A DNA stretch of 64,000 bases from a virus. Below the pieces are notes generated by a model that worked only from the letters and a program-made list of their open reading frames with translations, did no database searches and was not told the origin of the DNA. Shown one piece after another: positions 2,675 through 64,000 of this stretch. The stretch is taken from IMG/VR virus record IMGVR_UViG_3300025655_000017; one strand, given 5' to 3'. Numbering within the stretch: position 1 is the stretch's first letter; every line of letters starts with the position of its first letter. Made by a program: the position numbers and the translations under genes.

Positions 2675-3794
2675 AAGGCATTGGACTATAACTTAAAATT
2701 TTATTTAAATTTTCAGCCTCACCTGCTTTTCTTTCAAGTTGTTTATCACTTCTTAAATCTGTCAGAAAATCTTGTAATTCAGTTTTTAATTCACTAAATT
2801 CTTCCTTAGCTTCGGCTAATAAAATATCCCAATCAAGTTCTAATGAATCACCCCCCATGTTAACAAGCTTACCTTTAAACTTACCTCTTGCTCTTCCTAA
2901 GACTTGTTTGGTATAAGCAGTCAACCATTTTCTTATCCAAGTCTTAGAGAAATGATTTAAATCACAGTAATCTTGTTTTGGTAAATCAATTTGTGTTGGT
3001 GAATAAATTTTTTCACAGTCTTTTCTACACTCTGCTGCATCTGAATCATTTAAAATGTTGGTATCATAATACTCATACCAAACTTTACACCTATACATAT
3101 CTCTGTTAAAACTTCTTGTTCTATTATTTTCAGGTAATGAAAATAAGTGTAACAATCTAGTCCCATTCGGCCCTTTTGTAATACGATATGTTAAATCAGA
3201 ATTTAACATTCTATCAGTTATACTAAGGTGTGCAGCTCGTAAAATAACATCATGAGCTGGGAACAATGGGAAAACTCCACCTACACCTGCCCCACCAAAT
3301 CCAAAACTACCATAGGGAGCTAACCCACTCCCACTAAGACCCATATTACCATAGCCCCATGAAGAAAATATAGCTGCATCAATCTGTGAGGGGGTCATAA
3401 ATAAAACCTTTTTTACTTCTCTACCAGCCGGAATTTGATATACTTGATTACCTTCAACTATATCTACAAATCCTTTTTGTAATTCAAATCGGCCACCTCT
3501 TGAAGATAAACCAATATCTTCACTATATGCTTGAGCTAATGTTAGTTCATAATCAAAAGAAGCAGTCGTCAACGACAGACACACATCATTTGATGTAACA
3601 TTTTTACCAAAAAATGATGAAAATTTATTATTAATTATCCACATGTGCAAATAAGCATAAAAATCATCAATTGTCAATCTTAATAATGAACACCAATCCT
3701 CATAATTAATTTCTAACTCAAATCTACCCCCAGTTAACAAGATTTTAATATCTTGATATAGACATTTTAATTCTTCTGAACAATTGGTTTCCAT
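2661..3794 (-). CDS. neck / head-tail adaptor protein (T4 gp13-like)
   Basis: C-terminal WIRKWLTAYTKQVLGRARGKF...GG...LDWDILLAEAKEE matches the gp13-family pattern; putative late promoter upstream. Confidence 0.75.
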   Translation of the reverse strand: METNCSEELKCLYQDIKILLTGGRFELEINYEDWCSLLRLTIDDFYAYLHMWIINNKFSSFFGKNVTSNDVCLSLTTASFDYELTLAQAYSEDIGLSSRGGRFELQKGFVDIVEGNQVYQIPAGREVKKVLFMTPSQIDAAIFSSWGYGNMGLSGSGLAPYGSFGFGGAGVGGVFPLFPAHDVILRAAHLSITDRMLNSDLTYRITKGPNGTRLLHLFSLPENNRTRSFNRDMYRCKVWYEYYDTNILNDSDAAECRKDCEKIYSPTQIDLPKQDYCDLNHFSKTWIRKWLTAYTKQVLGRARGKFKGKLVNMGGDSLELDWDILLAEAKEEFSELKTELQDFLTDLRSDKQLERKAGEAENLNKILSYSPMPFKVI

Positions 3795-3950
3795 TTATAA
3801 CTTTAGATATAAATAGTTATTAATAATATCTTCAAGATAAAAAACTACTCTATTTAACCGATCTCGTAAATCATTTTAAAGGTTATCATTATTCATAACC
3901 TCTTTAATTTGCGTTTTAATTTCTTTTAACTTGTTTCCCATAATTATTTT

Positions 3951-4292
3951 TTAATAAGATTGACCTTTATAATTTAATTCAATACCTGTTATTTCAAAAT
4001 AAAGATTTTGAAGTTCATGGACGTATTCTATTGTTTTAATATGTGACATACTGGATAATGGATAAACATAATATTTTCTATCGCGTTTATAACTAATACT
4101 AAAACAAAAGTCTTCTTTTGTATAAAAACCACCCTTAAAGTTAAAATTAAAATTTTCAAACCAACCATGACCCAAAGGTATAGGTTTTATGTAAATTTTA
4201 TTTTGTCGATAAGATTCAAACCATTGATCAATTACTACTGGAATTCTCCATTTTTCATCAGGTCGTGATCTTGCTATTACAAAATTAGTCAT
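3951..4292 (-). CDS. hypothetical protein
   Basis: 113 aa ORF; C-terminal YVHELQNLYFEITGIEL motif resembles those of Bacteroidota phage proteins. Confidence 0.7.
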   Translation of the reverse strand: MTNFVIARSRPDEKWRIPVVIDQWFESYRQNKIYIKPIPLGHGWFENFNFNFKGGFYTKEDFCFSISYKRDRKYYVYPLSSMSHIKTIEYVHELQNLYFEITGIELNYKGQSY

Positions 4293-9063: not shown

Positions 9064-10095
9064 ATGCAATTATATTTAAAAAAAAGAGAATACATGGATT
9101 TTTTGGAAAAAATAAAAAATAGGGGATCAACAGTATACTTCATTGATGTTGACCACAAGGGACAATATAGTGAAATTGTTGACTATTTTTATCAAATTGC
9201 TTTAAAGGTTTCTCAGACTCATAAAGTAATTATTTTACATGATAAGAAAGATTACGTCAAACCTTATTATACTACTCGATTTGATGGATTAGAACATTTA
9301 TCGTTTGAGGAGTTACAAGCGAAAGAAATAAAAATTTCGGCTGCTGATTTTATTTTCGTCATGGAATATTACCTTGATGTGGTAAAACAATTAAGAGAAA
9401 CTAAAATTCCTGCTGAAATAGTTTTAGTGGTTGCCAATTTTAGTGCAATTTTACCCTCACTTGATATGGGTGATAATTGGTATAATTATGGCATTAAAAA
9501 TGTTGTGGTTACAAATGATTTTACTAGATCATTTTGCAGTAAGTTTTTTCCTACTATAAACTACCATGTTTATAATTCTAACTTAGAATTGCCACTAAAA
9601 GATAAAACAACTTTAGATAATCCTACTATCTTGATGGTAAATGGATCAGTCACAAAAATCGAAGATATTGTAAAAGGATTTTTTCTTGCCTATCCTCAAT
9701 ATAGTTTCGTTCCCATTAAAACACTTGAGTTAAGTGAATATCAGAACATATATGAGCAATTTGATAATTGCAGTGTGGCTGTATTTATGGATGACTTGTC
9801 TTCTGAGTATGATTTATTGAAAATGGCACTAACAAGAGGTGTAAATACAATAGGATTGATACCAAAACTTGCTCCTAGTTGGTTTATCAACGAAGAGGGT
9901 GCAATTAAATATGGAGAGTGGACAAATAACCCTTATCGTTTAATTGATTTACTAGCAATGCATTTTGATGCTTGGATTAGTGATAATAATAGACAACAAG
10001 AACCCGTCTCATTTTCTGTTTACGATAGTGACATTATGGATAAACTTATGGAAAACCGTATTGATTTTTTAGAAAAAATAGTAAATAAATCATGA
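9064..10095 (+). CDS. putative glycosyltransferase (GT-B-like, divergent)
   Basis: Rossmann-like alternation; C-terminal CSVAVFMD...LKMALTRGVNTIG resembles the GT4 E-A-M-x-x-G region; overlaps a GT2 gene. Start could be 9094. Confidence 0.5.
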   Translation: MQLYLKKREYMDFLEKIKNRGSTVYFIDVDHKGQYSEIVDYFYQIALKVSQTHKVIILHDKKDYVKPYYTTRFDGLEHLSFEELQAKEIKISAADFIFVMEYYLDVVKQLRETKIPAEIVLVVANFSAILPSLDMGDNWYNYGIKNVVVTNDFTRSFCSKFFPTINYHVYNSNLELPLKDKTTLDNPTILMVNGSVTKIEDIVKGFFLAYPQYSFVPIKTLELSEYQNIYEQFDNCSVAVFMDDLSSEYDLLKMALTRGVNTIGLIPKLAPSWFINEEGAIKYGEWTNNPYRLIDLLAMHFDAWISDNNRQQEPVSFSVYDSDIMDKLMENRIDFLEKIVNKS

Positions 10096-10838
10096 TAGAC
10101 GTTATAGTACCAGTAAAAAACATTGTTAGTGCCAAAGATAAGGAATTACTTATAAAAGCATTTCAATCGTTAAACAGCCAAGTAAACCGAGATTTTACAG
10201 TCAACCTTTTTATTAATAATGCAGAAAGTGGCGTATTAACTGATTTGGTAACTTCTTTGAATAATCCTCCTTTAATTCATATTTATGATGAAGATTATTC
10301 ATATACTGAATTAATTAATTATGCATCTTCTATGTTAAAAAATGATTATTTTATCATTTTAGAGCAAGATGATGTTTTTCAATCAAAACACTTTCAAAAT
10401 TTTTATAAAAATTCACAGGAAAAATGTGCCATGTATCTAAACTTATCATTGGAACTATCTAATGGTAATGAAGTCATGGGGATTAGAAATGAAATTTTTT
10501 GGTCTGTAAACGTAAACAATCAAATAGGTAACGTTTCTCATGAAATTGCAAAAAGAAATGTTAATAACCTTTCATTAGATGGTGCATTTATAAACAGAGA
10601 AAAATTTATTGAATATAAGGGATATAGAGAAGATATTGAGATTTTCTTTAATCAGGAATTAATTTTAAGATTTGCATATAAGGGTGAAACTATATATGTA
10701 ATACCTAAAATGGGAGTTCATCACATGATGAATAGAGATGGTTCATATTTAGATGTTTGTTCACAAAAATATTCTAGAGATGATATAGGTGAATTTCATA
10801 CTAAAATGATGAAAATTCACATGTTAAATAAAAAGTAA
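10092..10838 (+). CDS. glycosyltransferase family 2
   Basis: IDVIVPV...SLNSQ N-terminus and YFIILEQDD DxD-like motif. Confidence 0.75.
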   Translation: MIDVIVPVKNIVSAKDKELLIKAFQSLNSQVNRDFTVNLFINNAESGVLTDLVTSLNNPPLIHIYDEDYSYTELINYASSMLKNDYFIILEQDDVFQSKHFQNFYKNSQEKCAMYLNLSLELSNGNEVMGIRNEIFWSVNVNNQIGNVSHEIAKRNVNNLSLDGAFINREKFIEYKGYREDIEIFFNQELILRFAYKGETIYVIPKMGVHHMMNRDGSYLDVCSQKYSRDDIGEFHTKMMKIHMLNKK

Positions 10839-29649: not shown

Positions 29650-30741
29650 ATGAACAAAACAGAAAAAATGTTAAAGGGGTATGGGTTTGATGATGTAACA
29701 ATTATCCCTTATGCTGAAAACAGTATTAAATCAAGAGGTGAGATAGGGATCAATTTTAATGAGTTAATTTATGTATCTCCTATGGATAGCATCATTAATG
29801 ATGCCAACATAGATTTCTTCAGGAACAGAGGTATCATAGTACCACAAGTACGTAATATGTGGAAAAATGATAAATTAGCTAATTCGGGCTATGTTACTTT
29901 TTCATTGTCAGAAGCTAAGAATTTAATTGACCATAAAGAATCAGATGAGTTTGAATATATGAGCAATCAATTAAAAAATAATAAAAAAGTTAATTTACTA
30001 ATTGATATAGCAAATGGCCATTTAACCGAATTATGGTCTGTTTGTTCGCAGATAAAGTCTTATTATAAGGATTATCTATATCTTATAATTGGTAATATTG
30101 CAAATCCTAATACATATAAACATATATGTGACATGGAAATAGCAGATGCAGTAAGAGTGGGAATTGGAGGTGGTTCAAGATGTCATACATCATCTAAAAC
30201 TGCTATTCACTATCCAATTATTTCACTATTAAGTACAATCAAGGATATTAAAGATAAATATAATTATAAAGTTGATATTATAGCGGATGGTGGAATAAAA
30301 AATTCATCTGATATAATTAAGTGTTTTTGTGCAGGTGCTGATAAAGTTATGATGGGAAGTGTATTTGCAAAGACTTTAGAGTCTGCTGGTAAAAAATTTT
30401 TTACTGATGAAGATAAATATATTTTACCAGTAATGGATGCCAAAATTGATGGTATTGATATTGATATGGTGGAAAGATACCGTAGTGGACAAACAATATA
30501 TAGTGAATATAGAGGTATGTCAACTAAAGATGTACAAATAAAAGAGGGAAAAGCTGCACCAACTTACGAAGAAGGTTTTATTGAAAATATAAAAGTTGAA
30601 TATATGTTAGATGAACTTTTGATAGAAATTAATAACTCGTTAAGATCAGCTTTTTCTTATTGTAATGCGAGAACATTATCGGAATTTTATACAACTTCAA
30701 TTTTCATACAAAATTTTAATAATAACCACAATAGTTTATGA
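29650..30741 (+). CDS. GMP reductase / IMP dehydrogenase family protein
   Basis: FDDV, SPMDS, IDIANG, VGIGGGSRCHT (catalytic Cys), ADGGI, YRGMS. Confidence 0.85.
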   Translation: MNKTEKMLKGYGFDDVTIIPYAENSIKSRGEIGINFNELIYVSPMDSIINDANIDFFRNRGIIVPQVRNMWKNDKLANSGYVTFSLSEAKNLIDHKESDEFEYMSNQLKNNKKVNLLIDIANGHLTELWSVCSQIKSYYKDYLYLIIGNIANPNTYKHICDMEIADAVRVGIGGGSRCHTSSKTAIHYPIISLLSTIKDIKDKYNYKVDIIADGGIKNSSDIIKCFCAGADKVMMGSVFAKTLESAGKKFFTDEDKYILPVMDAKIDGIDIDMVERYRSGQTIYSEYRGMSTKDVQIKEGKAAPTYEEGFIENIKVEYMLDELLIEINNSLRSAFSYCNARTLSEFYTTSIFIQNFNNNHNSL

Positions 30742-58270: not shown

Positions 58271-58636
58271 ATGCAAATTGACGTTAGTGATAGCACAGTT
58301 CATTTGGTAGAAACAATTTGTCCTAAGGGGACAAAAGACAAAGTATTATATACTGCGTTAAAAATGACTTGTTGGAATGAAAATGCTGAGGTAATTTTTG
58401 AAGCAGGAATAACATGTCATTAATGCAATTATATAAAACATGTTCAATGTTGTCATATTATTGATGTTTCTAAATTTTCAGATGAAACACCATTAAATAT
58501 AATTAATCACCCAGATAATTTATTATGGCTTTGCCCCAATCATCACTGGGAATTTGATAATGGCCTCCTTGATAGTTTATATGATTTAATAAAAGATCAT
58601 GAATTATTGAAGAAATACTTGCACATGATAAAATAA
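58271..58636 (+). pseudogene. HNH endonuclease with an in-frame TAA
   Basis: ...GITCH*CNYIKHVQCCHII...NLLWLCPNHHWEFDNG; stop at 58421-58423 splits a CxxC. Confidence 0.7.
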
Positions 58637-58731
58637 ATCTGTATATTTGCATAGTAATTAATAGAAAGAATATTTTTTTACTATTTATTTTAAGAAATAG
58701 TTGCATTATAAGAAAAAAGTTTTTATCTTTG
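58619..58731 (+). promoter_or_regulatory. tandem Bacteroidota-type promoters upstream of the tRNA array
   Basis: TTGC(58619)...TATATTTG(58642) and TTGC(58701)...TATCTTTG(58724). Confidence 0.7.
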
Positions 58732-58767
58732 CACTGTTGAAAGTCGAAAGACTATAAATTTTTAAAT

Positions 58768-58841
58768 CGGAGATTAGAGCAGTCTGGTAGCTTGCTTGGC
58801 TCATAACCAAGAGGTCATTGGTTCAAATCCCTATATGTGCA
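58768..58841 (+). tRNA. tRNA-Met(CAT)-like, degenerate or chimeric
   Basis: Good D arm and anticodon arm (CTTGG-CTCATAA-CCAAG) and GGTTCAAATCC, but the outer T stem and acceptor stem do not pair. Confidence 0.5.
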
Positions 58842-58878
58842 ACTACAAAAACTTTTTTAAAAACATAATTTAATAGAA

Positions 58879-58971
58879 ATGAATACAATGCTAAAAAATA
58901 CAAAGATTAATAATGCAGCGCAACCGCTTCATGGGGATCGTTGTATCTACGCACTAAAGGTTCATTTTTGA
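58879..58971 (+). CDS. attenuator leader peptide (30 aa, MNTMLKNTKINNAAQPLHGDRCIYALKVHF)
   Basis: Hand translation; last codons overlap the antiterminator arm. Confidence 0.65.
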   Translation: MNTMLKNTKINNAAQPLHGDRCIYALKVHF

Positions 58972-59028
58972 CAGAAAAAAAGTTTTACTTCAAAAAAACC
59001 CTTTAGTGCAAATTAAAGGGTTTTTTTT
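58951..59028 (+). terminator. attenuator: mutually exclusive antiterminator and intrinsic terminator
   Basis: Terminator AAAAAAACCCTTTA-loop-TAAAGGGTTTTTTTT (58992-59028); GCACTAAAGG (58951-60) is perfectly complementary to CCTTTAGTGC (59000-09). Confidence 0.8.
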
Positions 59029-59128
59029 ATGTTCATTGACATAGTTGGATTATTTTAGAAAATATTAACTGAAAAAGGTAGTCAGTCCTTTGGAGTGCAA
59101 ACATTATTGCCACCAGTTGATACATAAA

Positions 59129-59204
59129 GGTCTATGGGGCTGCTTGGGTTGGCCGTCGGATTGTCTATCCGAATATCAGATGGGTTCAAATCCCATATAG
59201 ACTG
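59129..59204 (+). tRNA. tRNA-Asp(GTC)
   Basis: GGTCTAT/ATAGACT acceptor; TCGGA-TTGTCTA-TCCGA; GGTTCAAATCC. Confidence 0.8.
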
Positions 59205-59210
59205 CAACAT

Positions 59211-59290
59211 GCTCCTGTACGCAAAATAGGCAAAGCGGCCACACTTAGGATGTGGTGATTTATTTGTGGGTTCAAGTCCCACTGGGAGTA
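59211..59290 (+). tRNA. tRNA-Leu(TAG)
   Basis: CCACA-CTTAGGA-TGTGG; extended variable region; GTTCAAGTC. Confidence 0.85.
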
Positions 59291-59371
59291 CAATTTAATA
59301 AGTTTCAAGTAAAAGTGCTTACTTAAAGACAAATAGTGATTTGATCTTTTTAATGAAGATTATTAATATAT

Positions 59372-59445
59372 CTAGATGTAGCTTAAATGAATAAAGCACC
59401 ATGTTTGGGACATGGAAGATGTCAATTTGAGTTTGACCATCTGGA
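59372..59445 (+). tRNA. tRNA-Pro(TGG), atypical D/T loops
   Basis: CTAGATG/CATCTGG acceptor; CCATG-TTTGGGA-CATGG; T loop TTTGAGT; no GG in the D loop. Confidence 0.7.
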
Positions 59446-59462
59446 CTTTTTTTGAAAAAGGA

Positions 59463-59740
59463 ATCTCTAACGTATGTCGAAAGAGATATAGGGCTGGCAG
59501 TTAGCCTATTGCAGTTTAAAAATAACTTTTATACGTTTTTTTAAACGCATAAAGAAATTAATATATAACTATTAATTTTCATACTGTTGGAAACCAATGA
59601 TTGCATATGAAAATGTAATCTTGTTTACTAAACACGTTTTTAGTGGTTGCACTGAACCCTTGATTTTTAGTAAAAAATCATAAACAGGCTACAAAGATCA
59701 GTTTATTAAAACTGTCAATAATAACGTTAGGTTAGCTGCC
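59463..59740 (+). ncRNA. unassigned structured RNA (~280 nt)
   Basis: 13-bp closing helix 59496-59508/59728-59740, further long-range helices and several internal hairpins; no long ORF. Confidence 0.55.
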
Positions 59741-59766
59741 ATTGATTAATTTCATAAAAAGCTCCA

Positions 59767-59840
59767 CAGGAGTTAGCTCAGTTGGTTAGAGCGTCATCTT
59801 TACATGGTGAATGTCAATGGTTCGATCCCATTACTCTTGT
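59767..59840 (+). tRNA. tRNA-Val(TAC)
   Basis: CAGGAGT/ACTCTTG; TCATC-TTTACAT-GGTGA; GGTTCGATCC. Confidence 0.8.
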
Positions 59841-59852
59841 CATTTTAATTAT

Positions 59853-59928
59853 GGTCTATGGGGCTGCTGGATGTGGCCACTCCCTTGTCGCGGGAGAGAT
59901 CAGACGGGTTTGAATCCCGTATAGACCG
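59853..59928 (+). tRNA. tRNA-Asp(GTC), second copy
   Basis: GGTCTAT/ATAGACC; CTCCC-TTGTCGC-GGGAG. Confidence 0.8.
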
Positions 59929-59942
59929 CTTTTATTATTTAT

Positions 59943-60015
59943 GGGGCATTGATGAAACTGGCTATCATATAACACCTGCAATGTTATTTTACGGGTTCAA
60001 ACCCCGTATGCTCCA
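59943..60015 (+). tRNA. tRNA-Ala(TGC)
   Basis: G3:U70 in GGGGCAT/ATGCTCC; TAACA-CCTGCAA-TGTTA. Confidence 0.8.
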
Positions 60016-60071
60016 CCCAATTAATTGACTATCAGTGTTTTATGTTATGTCAGTTAATCTTTTACTTTAAT

Positions 60072-60149
60072 ACTGAGATACCCCCCTTGACTGATATTCA
60101 AAATAAAGGTAATTGGGTGAAAATATGGATTCGACCCCCATTCTCAGTA
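60072..60149 (+). ncRNA. tRNA-like element (acceptor stem and T arm, no clear D or anticodon arm)
   Basis: ACTGAGA/TCTCAGT, then ATGG-ATTCGACCC-CCAT. Confidence 0.5.
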
Positions 60150-60161
60150 CTTTTTTTACTA

Positions 60162-60233
60162 GCAGGTGTGGTGTAATTGGTAACATACAATCCTTCCAAG
60201 ATTAAGTCGCAAGATCGTTCCTTGTCACCTGCT
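60162..60233 (+). tRNA. tRNA-Gly(TCC)
   Basis: GCAGGTG/CACCTGC with U73; AATC-CTTCCAA-GATT; T loop ATCGTTC. Confidence 0.8.
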
Positions 60234-60246
60234 CTGATTTTTACAT

Positions 60247-60320
60247 GCTTCTATAGCTCAACTGGATAGAGCAATTCCCTACGAAGGAATAGGTTGTTAG
60301 TTCGACTCTAACTAGAAGTA
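60247..60320 (+). tRNA. tRNA-Arg(ACG)
   Basis: ATTCC-CTACGAA-GGAAT; canonical D and T arms. Confidence 0.9.
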
Positions 60321-60331
60321 CAAATTTTTAA

Positions 60332-60403
60332 AGACCTATCGTATAATGGCTATTACCCCTGATTTTGAGTCAGGAAATTCCAGTTCAAATCTGGATAGGT
60401 TTA
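60332..60403 (+). tRNA. tRNA-Gln(TTG)
   Basis: CCTGA-TTTTGAG-TCAGG; TCCAG-TTCAAAT-CTGGA. Confidence 0.85.
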
Positions 60404-60458
60404 TTTTTTTTCTTAATATGTTGCATTTGTAGTTTATTTTATGTAACTTTACTTTAAA

Positions 60459-61184
60459 ATGAAAAAATGGAATTTAGAGGAAACAAATAAATTAAAACTA
60501 TATATAGCTCAAAGAATGAGCTATGAAGAAATTTGTTTAAAAATGAATAGGACTTTTAGTTCGGTTGGTAATAAAGCTAGAAAATTAAATTTAACATATA
60601 ATCCTAAAAAAAGAATTTATCGAAGTTTATACATTTGTCAAAATACAAAATGTGTAAAAACATTTGAAGGATACGTTATAGCTAACCCGAAATATTGTAG
60701 TAGTTCATGTGCTGCCCAAGTAAACAATTTAAATGTTCAAAGAAATAAACAAAAAAAAATAGATTTACCTCCAAAAATAAATAAACAAAAAATAATAACA
60801 CATAGTTTTTGTTTATACTGTAAGGCTGCTAAACATAATATCTATTCAACTTACTGTAGTGTAACATGCTCTAGTGAACATAAGAGAGACATTAAGATTG
60901 GATTATGGTTAAATGGAAAGCACAGTGGACATAAAGGAAAAACTTTACAATTATGTGGTTTTGTAAAATATCATCTGAGAAAAATCAGAGGCACAAAGTG
61001 CTGTCAATGCGGGTGGGATAAAAAACACCCTATAGATGGAGCTACATGTAACCATATAGATCACATTGACGGTGATGCATCTAACAATAAAATAGAAAAT
61101 TTGAGAATATTATGTCCCAACTGTCATTCATTAACAGCAAACTTTGGTTCACGTAACAAAAATTCTGCTAGAAATTTTAATTAA
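60459..61184 (+). CDS. HNH endonuclease with N-terminal HTH and Zn-finger repeats
   Basis: CCQCG...HIDHIDGD..NN...NLRILCPNCH; YCSxxC repeats. Confidence 0.9.
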   Translation: MKKWNLEETNKLKLYIAQRMSYEEICLKMNRTFSSVGNKARKLNLTYNPKKRIYRSLYICQNTKCVKTFEGYVIANPKYCSSSCAAQVNNLNVQRNKQKKIDLPPKINKQKIITHSFCLYCKAAKHNIYSTYCSVTCSSEHKRDIKIGLWLNGKHSGHKGKTLQLCGFVKYHLRKIRGTKCCQCGWDKKHPIDGATCNHIDHIDGDASNNKIENLRILCPNCHSLTANFGSRNKNSARNFN

Positions 61185-61186
61185 CA

Positions 61187-61218
61187 TTAGGATTAATCAG
61201 TTATTTTATTTATCTTTG
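61187..61218 (+). promoter_or_regulatory. Bacteroidota-type promoter
   Basis: TTAG...TATCTTTG. Confidence 0.65.
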
Positions 61219-61240
61219 TGTCAACAAAAACAAAAAAATC

Positions 61241-61507
61241 ATGAAATTATTTTATGTTTTATTATTGATTACTGTATTGAGCTTTACTAATTGTACCGAA
61301 CAAGCTAGAACAAAAGCCTTTGGAGGAACTATGACGATTGAACTGGAAAAGGGAGAACGTCTTATTGAAGCTACTTGGAAAGATACACAACTATGGTATT
61401 TAACTGAACCGATGAAAGAAGATTATGTGCCTAATACTAAAACGTTTAGAGAACAATCTTCATTTGGAATGATGGAAGGAAAAGTTGTATTTAAAGAAAG
61501 TCGATAA
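61241..61507 (+). CDS. small phage lipoprotein
   Basis: Signal peptide plus Cys (FTNC); FGGTMTIEL..G.RL...TWK...LWYLT. Confidence 0.75.
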   Translation: MKLFYVLLLITVLSFTNCTEQARTKAFGGTMTIELEKGERLIEATWKDTQLWYLTEPMKEDYVPNTKTFREQSSFGMMEGKVVFKESR

Positions 61508-61599
61508 TATTACATAAGAAATCAGATGGTAGTACATGTAAATAATATTAATCGTTCAGTTCAGCACAGAGGTTATGTTATTTAGTACTATCATCAAAT

Positions 61600-61723
61600 T
61601 CTCCGGTGGCTTAGTTGGTTAAAGCATCCCACTTTCCTGTCCATTTATTAAGACTAATCCGTTTTAGTTTTTTAAAGGCCAAGATTAATGGGAGGATCGT
61701 GGGTTCGAGTCCCACCCGGAGAA
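61600..61723 (+). tRNA. tRNA (probably Lys-TTT) with a 50-nt insertion in the anticodon loop
   Basis: Perfect acceptor TCTCCGG/CCGGAGA, D arm, TCCCA/TGGGA anticodon stem and T arm; 57-nt loop. Confidence 0.75.
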
Positions 61724-61737
61724 CATAAAAGCTAAAT

Positions 61738-62658
61738 ATGTCAAGAAACGTACAACATTCTTTATTGGGAAAAGCTAAGGCTAATAAAAAAGATGAATTT
61801 TATACACAATTTAAAGACATAGAGGGTGAATTAAAACATTATGAACATCATTTTAAAGATAAAATAGTTTATTGTAATTGTGACGATCCTAATGTTAGTA
61901 ATTTTTCAAAATATTTTATTTTAAACTTTGAAAGATTAAAACTAAGAAAATTAATTTCTACTGGGTATAAGAAAGAAGGTAGAGGAGTTGGAAATCTTTA
62001 TAAAAAAGATCAAAATAAAATTATTCGTCTAGAAGGTAATGGAGATTTTAGAAGTGAAGAATGTATTGAATTGTTAAAAGAATCAGATATTGTAGTTACT
62101 AATCCTCCATTTTCTTTGTTTCGTGAATATGTAGGACAATTAATAGAATACAAAAAAAATTTTCTCATTATTGGCAATATAAATGCTCTTACCTATAAAG
62201 ACATTTTTAAGCTTATTAAAAATAATAACGCTTGGATGGGTATTAACATGGGAAGAGGAATCTCAGGGTTTATCGTTCCAGAACATTATGAGCTTTATGG
62301 GACAGAGACTAAAATAGACGATGAAGGAAATAGAATAGTCTCACCTAATAATTGTTTTTGGTTGACAAACTTAGATACATCTAAACGACACGAAGACATC
62401 GTTCTTTCAAAAACATATTATGGATGTGAAAGTGAATATCCAATATATAATAATTATGATGGTATCAATGTAAATAAAACAAAAGATATACCAAGGGATT
62501 ACAGGGGAGCTATGGGTGTACCAATAACATTTCTGCATAAATTTAATCCAGATCAATTTGAAATAATTAAATTTAGAAAGGGAAATGATGAAAAAGATTT
62601 ATCAATAAATGGCAAATGCCCATACTTTAGAATTTTAATTAAAAATAAAAGATTATAA
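61738..62658 (+). CDS. adenine-specific DNA methyltransferase, EcoRI family
   Basis: KKDEFYT, YCNCDDP, GDFRS.EC, VTNPPFSLFREY, MGVPITF. Confidence 0.9.
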   Translation: MSRNVQHSLLGKAKANKKDEFYTQFKDIEGELKHYEHHFKDKIVYCNCDDPNVSNFSKYFILNFERLKLRKLISTGYKKEGRGVGNLYKKDQNKIIRLEGNGDFRSEECIELLKESDIVVTNPPFSLFREYVGQLIEYKKNFLIIGNINALTYKDIFKLIKNNNAWMGINMGRGISGFIVPEHYELYGTETKIDDEGNRIVSPNNCFWLTNLDTSKRHEDIVLSKTYYGCESEYPIYNNYDGINVNKTKDIPRDYRGAMGVPITFLHKFNPDQFEIIKFRKGNDEKDLSINGKCPYFRILIKNKRL

Positions 62659-62715
62659 AAATAGAAAGACAGAAGCTTGGCAGACAGGTGATATTAGTAA
62701 ATTATATTTTTATAA

Positions 62716-62789
62716 ACCCCTATAACTCAGTTGGTTAGAGTATCGTACTTTTAATGCGAGAGTCCTTGGTTCGAGTCCAAGTAGGGGTA
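62716..62789 (+). tRNA. tRNA-Lys(TTT)
   Basis: ACCCCTA/TAGGGGT; TCGTA-CTTTTAA-TGCGA. Confidence 0.9.
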
Positions 62790-62803
62790 CAAATTTTATT
62801 AAA

Positions 62804-62893
62804 GGGGGTGTAGCTGATGTGGTTTTAGCGGGAGACTGTTAATCTCTGATTGAAAATATTGAAATAAAGTGGGTTCGAATCCTACCGCCCCCG
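62804..62893 (+). tRNA. tRNA-Asn(GTT) with a long variable region
   Basis: GGAGA-CTGTTAA-TCTCT; ~21-nt variable region; G73. Confidence 0.8.
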
Positions 62894-62904
62894 CTTTTAT
62901 TTAT

Positions 62905-62978
62905 TCTGAGGTGGCTGAATTGGTTAAGGCACGTTTCTTGTAAAAACGGTTTTGCAGGTTCGAATCCTGTCCTCAGAT
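62905..62978 (+). tRNA. tRNA-Thr(TGT)
   Basis: TCTGAGG/CCTCAGA; CGTTT-CTTGTAA-AAACG. Confidence 0.8.
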
Positions 62979-63050
62979 CATTTTTTCTAAAATAAACTTG
63001 CAATTGTCATTAATTAATCTTATCTTTACAAAAATTAAAACACAATAATT

Positions 63051-63248
63051 ATGAAAACAATTTTTATTCTTTATTTTGCTACTATAGCTTTTGCACTTTT
63101 TGGTTGGGGGAGCTGTATTCACAAGTTTATCCAATGTGACTTTGACAGTACAAAAACAAGTTATAAGTCAGAAATTATCTATGGTGTTGGTACATTTGTT
63201 CCTGTGATAGGAGTTTTTATAGGATATATGAATGTAGGAGAAGGTTAA
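63051..63248 (+). CDS. small membrane protein
   Basis: 65 aa with two hydrophobic segments; promoter-like TTG...TATCTTTA upstream. Confidence 0.65.
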   Translation: MKTIFILYFATIAFALFGWGSCIHKFIQCDFDSTKTSYKSEIIYGVGTFVPVIGVFIGYMNVGEG

Positions 63249-63301
63249 AAAATTTTTTATAGGTATTTGCTTTTATGCATTTATCTCTGTATCTTTGTAT
63301 T

Positions 63302-63859
63302 ATGGAACAAATAAAATTACAACTTACAACAGGGAATGATAAACAATCACGCAGAGCGTTAGATTTTTATCCTACTCCACCTGAAGCGACTATAGCTTTA
63401 TTGGACTTTCTTAAATTAAAACCTACTACAGTATGGGAGTGTGCTTCTGGAAATGGAGCAATGGTAGATGTGTTAAAACAATATGGTCACGATGTAATAG
63501 CTACAGATATAATAAATGGGGAAGATTATCTTCTCATAAAAAGAGATGCTGATATTATTATCACTAATCCACCATTTAATATATCAGATAAGTTTATAGA
63601 AAAAGCAGTTAATGAATGCTCAATTGTTGCATTTTTGTTAAAAACACAATATTGGCACGCAAAAAAAAGATATAAGCTTTTTAAAAAACATTCACCATCA
63701 TACATTTTACCTTTAACTTGGAGGCCAGACTTCTTATATCAAGAACGAAAAAATGGAGCAAAAGGTTCTCCAACAATGGATGTTAATTGGAATGTTTGGA
63801 TAAAAGGTGATTCAACTACTAAATATTTACCTTTACTAAAACCAAATAACATTTTTTAG
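63302..63859 (+). CDS. DNA N6-adenine methyltransferase
   Basis: DFYPTP, WECASGNG, ITNPPF; promoter TTTG...TATCTTTG at 63266-63297 supports start at 63302. Confidence 0.85.
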   Translation: MEQIKLQLTTGNDKQSRRALDFYPTPPEATIALLDFLKLKPTTVWECASGNGAMVDVLKQYGHDVIATDIINGEDYLLIKRDADIIITNPPFNISDKFIEKAVNECSIVAFLLKTQYWHAKKRYKLFKKHSPSYILPLTWRPDFLYQERKNGAKGSPTMDVNWNVWIKGDSTTKYLPLLKPNNIF

Positions 63860-63875
63860 TAAAAATTTAAAAATT

Positions 63876-64000
63876 ATGAGAATAACATTTGACGCATTAT
63901 TTTACTATGCAAGAGAACAATATGGTATTGGGTGGAATCCATGTAATGACATATTTTTTGGTGGCGTTCTTGATTATGGTTCATTCAATGAATATGATCG
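63876..64000 (+). CDS. hypothetical protein (partial)
   Basis: ATG at 63876, open to the window end. Confidence 0.55.
   Translation, partial: MRITFDALFYYAREQYGIGWNPCNDIFFGGVLDYGSFNEYD

Follow-up and report, generated by a model that had tools for sequence, protein, structure and literature searches.

A lysine tRNA gene in a T4-type phage with a 50-nucleotide helical insert in its anticodon

The gene at positions 61600-61723 of a viral sequence from the IMG/VR collection (IMGVR_UViG_3300025655_000017) is a lysine tRNA, anticodon UUU, interrupted by a 50-nt intervening sequence. The window, by which we mean the whole 64-kb stretch of DNA that was analysed, supplies the numbering used throughout. 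The tRNA body is pristine and the insert, an imperfect helical rod, lies within the anticodon itself. To our knowledge, the textbook view is that tRNA introns of bacteria and phages are self-splicing group I introns. Short phage tRNA inserts that do not self-splice are already in print once, from the Lak megaphages, and were left unexplained there. What is new is a minimal version of such an insert: a bare helix of 50 nt sits within the anticodon of a lysine tRNA that is otherwise pristine, and the phage is T4-like with a Bacteroidota-type host. Our preference, tentative and held with rather less than even confidence, is that proteins remove the insert to yield tRNA-Lys. The parts of the gene are as follows.

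61600-61723, plus strand: split tRNA gene with a tRNA-Lys(UUU)-type body, 124 nt (Rfam RF00005; ARAGORN intron mode)
61600-61634, plus strand: 5′ part of the tRNA, comprising the acceptor strand, D arm, 5′ strand of the anticodon stem and C32, U33 and U34 (from the sequence and a cloverleaf-constrained fold)
61635-61684, plus strand: insert, an imperfect rod of 50 nt with 18 pairs
61650-61671, plus strand: apical hairpin of the rod, AAGACUAA / UCCGUU / UUAGUUUU
61685-61723, plus strand: 3′ part of the tRNA, comprising U, U, A and A, the 3′ strand of the anticodon stem, a 5-nt variable loop, the T arm, acceptor strand and A73

The match to the Rfam tRNA family RF00005 runs end to end over 61600-61723 (model positions 1-71) and scores 56.5 bits with an E value of 1.4e-10, the gathering score being 29. 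With the penalty for the 50-nt insertion included, the gene ranks fifth best of the 13 Rfam tRNA matches between 58500 and 64000. The coordinates and the four intact stems given in the initial annotation are confirmed both by the sequence and by this end-to-end match. The acceptor stem is formed by 61600-61606 and 61716-61722, the D stem by 61609-61612 and 61622-61625 with AGUUGGUUA as the D loop, the anticodon stem by 61627-61631 and 61689-61693, and the T stem by 61699-61703 and 61711-61715 with the T loop UUCGAGU. The variable loop has five bases and the discriminator is A at 61723; CCA is unencoded, as it is in the neighbouring tRNA genes. By sequence the canonical tertiary positions U8, A14, G15-C48, G18, G19, U33, T54, psi55, C56 and A58 are present. 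The score of the tRNA body is far above those of old, non-decoding look-alikes; RNA1 of phage T5 falls short of an E value of 0.01 with RF00005 and a look-alike in Cronobacter phage GAP32 reaches 33 bits. Such intact stems and so high a score argue against old decay, in keeping with the first reading of the perfect stems. ARAGORN misses the gene in bacterial mode. In intron mode, the check suggested at the outset, it finds the gene and reports a 50-nt insert in the C-loop, with an arbitrarily chosen junction.

The encoded anticodon loop is 57 nt long (61632-61688), as had been stated, and the 7-nt loop of a decoding tRNA is obtained only after 50 nt are removed. If the removal begins behind the third or fourth loop base, the result is CUUUUAA, a lysine tRNA (UUU) loop with U33 and A37 in place. 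Removal after base 5 gives CUUUCAA and after base 6 CUUUCCA, each carrying the glutamate anticodon UUC. The initial annotation had offered Lys(UUU) and Glu(UUC) as alternatives. Both loops are indeed possible, but the glutamate identity is the less plausible given A73, the D arm and the 3′ half, and judged on these sequence features it is unlikely. Lysine is preferred on the boundaries of the rod, which fit CUUUUAA, and on the Lys-like character of the 3′ half, the D arm, A73 and the variable loop of 5 nt. Neither the D arm nor the variable loop shows the features of bacterial tRNA-Glu; both belong to the common class I type. When the 3′ half is compared with a phage collection, the best-covering matches include the tRNA-Lys of Sinorhizobium phage Phosso (91% over 35 nt, E value 2e-5), whose T arm is identical; genes for tRNA-Ile and tRNA-Met also occur among them. 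The split falls between anticodon positions 34 and 35, or 35 and 36, one T being ambiguous.

That the insert folds on itself had been noticed from AAGACTAA at 61650-61657 and TTAGTTTT at 61664-61671. This pairing caps a longer rod, 61635-61684, which covers the insert from its first to its last base and leaves an unpaired CUU before it and UUAA after. The helices of the rod measure 2, 2, 2, 4 and 8 bp; between them come two mismatches (1x1), a single bulged nucleotide and a 2x1 internal loop, and UCCGUU forms the apical loop. The rod is the minimum-energy fold whether or not the cloverleaf is enforced. The arm folds at -16.7 kcal/mol (z -3.5), none of 200 shuffles is as good and the pair probabilities are 0.86-0.98. 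The rod energies of the two strands are -9.1 and -7.9 kcal/mol, an asymmetry that is uninformative. At 32% GC the insert is close to the window as a whole (28%) and well below the tRNA parts (53%). Searches within the insert for a promoter or terminator gave nothing above chance, and the rod carries no recognised protein-binding motif.

What kind of element might this be? A group I or group II intron is rejected because 50 nt is far too short, the insert forms a single hairpin and no Rfam intron family matches at E ≤1. Group I introns typically measure some 200 nt at least and have a catalytic core that includes the paired regions P3-P9. Those in tRNA-Leu(UAA) and in Azoarcus tRNA-Ile(CAU) resemble the present insert in occupying the anticodon loop between exons that restore a tRNA, but they have a catalytic core where the window has a simple 50-nt hairpin. 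The initial view that the insert is too short to be self-splicing is therefore borne out, and no ribozyme family matches. Self-cleaving ribozymes (hammerhead, twister, pistol, hatchet and HDV-like) are likewise rejected, a cmscan of 58500-64000 at E ≤1 placing none over the insert, and a permissive scan places no other Rfam family there. The bacterial Y RNA YrlA (RF02553) gives no match at E ≤1. YrlA has a permuted tRNA-like domain with the acceptor helix closed, whereas here the acceptor ends are open. A mobile palindromic element is rejected because there is no other copy within the 64-kb window; no second copy is found at three or fewer mismatches, shared words are at chance level and the best stray blastn match has an E value of 0.02.

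The source, an uncultured giant phage, has a major capsid protein of T4 type (gp23) and promoter motifs of Bacteroidota type. It has very few relatives; the closest homologue of the capsid protein among 5.8 billion proteins shares 55% identity and lies on a 2-kb contig. Many of its other tRNA genes look degenerate, with Rfam scores down to 35 bits. Three neighbours of the split gene are relevant to what follows.

60459-61184, plus strand: free-standing HNH endonuclease, between a tRNA-Gln gene (ending at 60403, 56 nt ahead) and the split tRNA (416 nt on)
61738-62658, plus strand: EcoRI-type adenine methyltransferase, starting 14 nt past the split tRNA
62716-62790, plus strand: uninterrupted tRNA-Lys(UUU), 1 kb downstream, with the same loop CTTTTAA as the split gene and a divergent body

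The last of these is the intact tRNA-Lys(TTT) that had been reported 1 kb away, and it is confirmed. The methyltransferase offers a test of whether the insert belongs to an adjoining mobile unit, an identity that is rejected since homology to other phages begins only past the tRNA. In nine other phage contigs the homology starts at 61725-61738 and none of the nine has the split tRNA; from that boundary we conclude that the split gene does not travel with the methyltransferase.

Wider searches for relatives of the split gene were negative. The split locus has no blastn match in 50,697 phage records. Exact and gapped patterns built on the anticodon stem plus insert, on the 3′ half and on the rod found no real match in viral, metagenome and genome contigs; the pattern matches that did arise, eight by chance in viral contigs and one in a cyanobacterial MAG, are none of them this tRNA. 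Synteny traced through the methylase yields 11 loci, the split tRNA being in none. Traced through the major capsid protein, a tRNA lies within 10 kb in none of 80 IMG/VR loci, where the proteins are 33-40% identical. A tRNA scan of 36 whole phage records uncovers other over-long tRNA genes, none related to the split tRNA. Since no homologue was found, there is neither covariation nor an insert-free allele to draw on, and this is the chief weakness of all the interpretations that follow.

Over-long tRNA genes are nonetheless common in large phages, according to these whole-record scans with tRNA models, and capsid relatives in IMG/VR carry further variants. In the 595-kb phage LR756511.1 hairpins of 21 nt and 30 nt occupy anticodon loops, and their removal restores CAU and UCU loops; in other tRNA genes of this genome the D loop or the variable region holds the insert. 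The published case is that of the Lak megaphages of Prevotella, which have 'tRNAs with highly conserved introns' described as enigmatic (Devoto et al. 2019, PMC6784885). Those inserts are 79-114 nt long and follow position 37, each contains a T-arm-like piece and none has an Rfam hit (PMC6784885, Table S6). They bear out the statement in the initial annotation that tRNA introns occur in huge phages. In common with the window insert they interrupt the anticodon loop in huge phages of Bacteroidota, lack a self-splicing core and match no Rfam family. The insert described here differs in being a plain 50-nt rod inside the anticodon (34/35 or 35/36), without an element of the GGTTCGA type, and whilst the Lak introns are conserved between cohorts no relative of this one was found. 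Introns go unmentioned in the main text of the 2020 huge-phage survey.

If the insert is removed, how might this be achieved? The primary transcript would adopt the normal L shape of a tRNA with the anticodon masked by an RNA rod of two turns. A protein endonuclease would sever the rod at its base, the stems of the tRNA would hold the two halves together and an RNA ligase would reseal them. The only specific route that we find compatible with the geometry would use cuts of the RNase III type, specific for double strands, at 61635|61636 and 61685|61686. The hairpin set free would carry the 2-nt 3′ overhang that is typical of RNase III, and the ends left behind would be 3′-OH and 5′-phosphate. 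A nicked anticodon loop with such ends is a substrate of T4-type RNA ligase; an ATP-dependent ligase of the T4 Rnl type could thus seal the nick to give the loop CUUUUAA, with the predicted junction CCCACTTTTAATGGGA. By arithmetic on the predicted pairs, the 2-nt 3′ overhang is produced only in the register that restores the 7-nt loop, CUUU|UAA. The argument is a weak one, since every flush hairpin whose junction is ambiguous by one base has such a register.

The rod compares with known substrates of E. coli RNase III, T7 R1.1 and uR1.1, in being an imperfect helical hairpin of more than 11 bp (PMC1540722). The shortest helix from cut to loop that this enzyme accepts is 11 bp (PMC1540722), and the rod has 18 pairs. 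Against this, a C:G or G:C pair in the proximal box, beside the scissile bond, is a catalytic antideterminant for the E. coli enzyme (PMC1540722). The first pair inside the proposed cut is C61636:G61683, contrary to the E. coli rule and a point in which the rod departs from the E. coli substrates; the enzyme of the host may differ.

We know of no natural RNase III substrate that is resealed into a tRNA, and of no protein-only route of tRNA splicing established for bacteria or phages. Within the window, Pfam identifies no RNA ligase, RNase III or splicing endonuclease in the ORFs that were scanned (45 of the 51 of at least 120 aa and five shorter ones). The analysis establishes the gene, its fold, the Lys-type body and the exact Lys loop that excision would restore, and it finds no self-splicing or bulge-helix-bulge feature; actual removal of the insert, and the enzymes proposed for it, are our inference. 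Several observations together suggest removal: the pristine body and seven loop bases, the exact span of the rod, its significant structure, the Lys-like A73 and 3′ half, and the precedent of the Lak introns. Inserts whose removal would restore a canonical loop recur in other huge phages, with the CAU and UCU loops of LR756511.1 as examples. Further points weigh on the other side. Because a normal tRNA-Lys(UUU) is encoded 1 kb away, the spliced product would be redundant. In addition, RNA1 of T5, which by analogy shares the design, is annotated as a stable RNA rather than as a precursor, and this counts against removal.

T5 RNA1 is the foundation of the principal alternative, that the transcript is a stable, unspliced, non-decoding RNA of tRNA shape in which the rod replaces the anticodon. 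We regard this as a possibility, if on the unlikely side. The tRNA body would then ensure that the RNA is processed, stable and recognised by proteins that bind tRNA. The RNA might divert host nucleases from tRNA-Lys, as a competitor or decoy, or act as a handle for a partner protein. Neither T5 RNA1 nor the HNH gene near the split tRNA figures in the initial annotation. RNA1 is the misc_RNA at 30501-30644 (144 nt) of AY543070.1, annotated 'tRNA-like stable RNA with unknown functions', and sits between the HNH genes F-TflI and F-TflII. At this locus T5 and its relatives have a 131-nt gene resembling tRNA-Leu with a 40-nt rod in the anticodon loop. RNA1 is conserved in two genera, with ACAUCCAC unchanged as its apical loop and a flanking 'anticodon' that varies (TAA and AAA); it looks like an old, non-decoding RNA. 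It shares with the window RNA the tRNA frame, a rod in the anticodon loop, a place in a phage tRNA cluster and HNH neighbours, and is the precedent for a stable product. The two also differ. RNA1 has a class II frame with a long variable arm, whereas the window RNA is near-perfect class I and keeps its Lys loop perfect around the rod. The two are without sequence similarity, and the apical loop of the window RNA is UCCGUU, not ACAUCCAC. The 'anticodon' of the RNA1 family is not conserved, whilst in the split gene the anticodon stem and seven loop bases are perfectly kept and the tRNA score stands well above those of RNA1 and the GAP32 look-alike.

A further comparison is with genes of two Mimasvirus phages, GAP32 and Xanthomonas phage XbC2. 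GAP32 has two Lys(UUU)-type genes, NC_019401.1 300083-300209 (127 nt) and 306871-306993 (123 nt), beside a normal tRNA-Lys(UUU), and XbC2 has a counterpart of the 123-nt gene. Their inserts of 50-53 nt fall at positions 28/29 of the anticodon stem and leave CUUUUAA intact. Five Mimasvirus genes, these Lys copies together with tRNA-framed genes that lie behind an HNH gene, have an invariant CAGCAAC after the hairpin; the hairpin stems differ from gene to gene yet still pair, and the Lys copies share GAAACCC. As in the window, these Lys(UUU)-type genes, which are 122-127 nt long and have a structured insert in the anticodon arm, stand beside a normal tRNA-Lys(UUU), and both jumbo phages also have a relative of the window's HNH gene. 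That GAP32 and XbC2 have several tRNA-framed genes with structured inserts of about 50 nt, two of them of Lys(UUU) type, next to a normal tRNA-Lys, favours a stable RNA. The window insert splits the anticodon whereas those of GAP32 and XbC2 sit in the anticodon stem. Since CAGCAAC and GAAACCC are both absent, we consider the window RNA analogous to the Mimasvirus family and not a member of it.

Further aspects of the stable-RNA proposal concern function. A decoy would be consistent with tRNA-Lys being a proven target of phage defence, to which T5 responds with a tRNA-Lys of its own (PMC11464382), and the normal tRNA-Lys(UUU) nearby makes decoding by the split gene unnecessary. The proposal is weakened by the rod having no recognised protein-binding motif, by the lack of a match to YrlA or any other Rfam family, and by the absence of CAGCAAC and of similarity to T5 RNA1. 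TerD, considered as a candidate partner of TerD/TROVE type for the rod, gives no match in five large phage records.

A dead gene is somewhat less probable again and we judge it unlikely. According to this proposal a spare tRNA-Lys gene received an imperfect palindrome of 50 bp in its anticodon loop, and its loss could be tolerated because the other tRNA-Lys(UUU) is present. The genome-like composition of the insert, low in GC relative to the tRNA parts, fits such an event, as do the intact tRNA-Lys(UUU) 1 kb away, the degenerate appearance of many other tRNA genes in the phage and the lack of any relative in which the insert is conserved. The HNH endonuclease encoded 416 nt upstream is a further point in its favour. 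For the ORF of this enzyme, Pfam gives weak HNH and HNH_3 matches that fall just short of the curated cut-offs, and PHROG gives clearer ones to HNH families (phrog_1271, E value 7.6e-17). Relatives are embedded in the tRNA arrays of four other phage lineages, namely GAP32, XbC2, the T5-like phage HdH2 and IMG/VR contigs. In three IMG/VR contigs a tRNA-Thr gene is followed after 51 nt by the HNH relative and then by tRNA-Glu. The jumbo phages GAP32 and XbC2 have the order tRNA-Thr, HNH relative and a 120-nt tRNA-framed gene, and in the T5-like phage tRNA-Thr comes immediately after the HNH relative. Cleavage of tRNA genes by homing endonucleases that reside in phage tRNA clusters is known from T4 SegB, and HNH enzymes are found in the T5 cluster (PMC2330249). 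Since such enzymes are established, selection of the insert at the DNA level is conceivable; by analogy it could shield the target site of an endonuclease, and a variant of the dead-gene proposal is that the insert was possibly selected because it destroys the site cut by the neighbouring HNH enzyme.

Other details sit less well with a dead gene. As the tRNA body is without any damage, the event would have to be very recent, but the palindrome, with its three mismatches or bulges, has the imperfections to be expected of an RNA helix that has evolved rather than the form of a newly made duplication. Nowhere else in the 64 kb does the insert recur, and the HNH relatives are linked to tRNA-Thr, not to tRNA-Lys.

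An intron of archaeal or eukaryal type, processed by a bulge-helix-bulge endonuclease and RtcB with a cut at 37/38 to give tRNA-Glu(UUC), is very improbable. In its favour, no tRNA-Glu is encoded in the window, and pairing of U33-U35 to A-G-A at 61682-61684, with CC and UAA as the bulges, gives a loose version of the motif. Against it, position 37 of the product would be C, the body has A73 and is without the features of bacterial tRNA-Glu, the host is bacterial, and the window ORFs that were scanned yielded no splicing endonuclease. The bulge-helix-bulge motif consists of two 3-nt bulges on opposite strands with 4 bp between them. The best version that can be drawn has three central pairs and not four, and one bulge of 2 nt; at -11.9 kcal/mol it is 4.8 kcal/mol worse than the rod at -16.7 kcal/mol, with a pair probability of 0.001. 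The test for this motif proposed in the initial annotation therefore comes out against it.

Removal of the rod by proteins, the reading we tentatively prefer, can be extended to a more general scheme. Large phages might splice some of their tRNAs by proteins alone, with RNase III of the host trimming the rod and an RNA ligase of the phage resealing the ends. In the present case the anticodon loop of tRNA-Lys(UUU) would be masked from defence nucleases directed against lysine tRNA until the repair enzymes of the phage are present. We consider this scheme, taken as a whole, distinctly unlikely. Whether the insert is removed or turns the tRNA into another kind of RNA, either outcome bears on phage counter-defence because tRNA-Lys is a favourite target of anti-phage nucleases. 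The existence of analogues in the cultured phages T5 and GAP32 means that the fate of the insert, protein removal as opposed to another kind of RNA, is directly testable at the bench. Similar insert-bearing tRNA genes of cultured phages (T5 RNA1, GAP32 and XbC2) are mostly unannotated or mis-annotated. In GAP32, 300083-300209 is annotated as tRNA-Lys, and 306871-306993 has no annotation of its own and is overlapped by a small predicted ORF.

An insert family of about 50 nt is common to Cronobacter phage GAP32 and Xanthomonas phage XbC2, where it occurs in five tRNA-framed genes:

L133 (piece of GAP32 record NC_019401.1) 10084-10210, record 300083-300209: insert-bearing gene
L133 16872-16994, record 306871-306993: insert-bearing gene
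L131 (sequence piece) 61-182: insert-bearing gene
L122 (GAP32 HNH locus) 2952-3072: insert-bearing gene
L124 (XbC2 HNH locus) 2668-2787: insert-bearing gene

Each of the five inserts holds a hairpin and then an invariant CAGCAAC; the sequence of the hairpin stem varies from copy to copy with pairing maintained, and the Lys copies additionally share GAAACCC. Two tRNA-Lys(UUU) genes of the family are split at anticodon-stem positions 28/29. One bears the annotation of an ordinary tRNA-Lys (127 nt); the other has none and is overlapped by the ORF GAP32_431A. The family gave no match to any Rfam family.

The T5 'RNA1' is built on a tRNA-Leu-like frame whose anticodon loop carries a 40-nt rod:

L125 608-751, AY543070.1 30501-30644: RNA1 of T5
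L123 (T5-like HdH2) 710-840, and pieces L126-L129: listed with it

Tequintavirus and Epseptimavirus share one invariant apical loop, ACAUCCAC, whereas the anticodon-like triplet flanking the rod differs. In many T5-like records the locus is unannotated or has a hypothetical protein placed over it.

Many over-long tRNA genes are also present in huge phages (L023-L028, from LR756511.1 and LR756508.1, and L109-L114, IMG/VR capsid relatives), with inserts in the D loop, variable region or anticodon loop (21, 30, 48 nt), some of which contain an internal T-arm-like element.

Members of one HNH endonuclease family were located as follows:

window 60459-61184 (+): HNH gene
L118-L120 (three IMG/VR contigs) 3001-3603: HNH genes
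L122 1776-2465: GAP32 HNH gene
L124 1785-2450: XbC2 HNH gene
L123 2022-2414: HdH2 HNH gene

Four unrelated phage lineages have a tRNA-Thr(UGU) gene directly adjoining a family member, a pattern suggestive of a homing enzyme linked to tRNA genes. The window gene is preceded instead by tRNA-Gln. The GAP32 tRNA-Thr that neighbours the HNH gene (L122 1638-1722) is 83-85 nt, unusual for a threonine tRNA, owing to an enlarged variable region; the XbC2 counterpart is 73 nt.

On L119, the stretch 3604-3973 that separates the HNH gene from tRNA-Glu contains two modules that can be read as tRNA parts in circular permutation (T arm, closed acceptor-like helix, D arm), the same topology as the bacterial Y RNA YrlA.

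Upstream of the first tRNA array of the window, positions 58773-58836 match the tRNA model in part (35.5 bits over model positions 6-65), and ARAGORN makes no call there. A 194-aa ORF at 63275-63859, downstream of the complete EcoRI-type methylase gene (61738-62658, +), aligns with only a portion of the profile of phrog_799 (positions 201-369 of 458), a family of phage DNA methyltransferases, and has a weak match to EcoRI methylase; this ORF may be a fragment.
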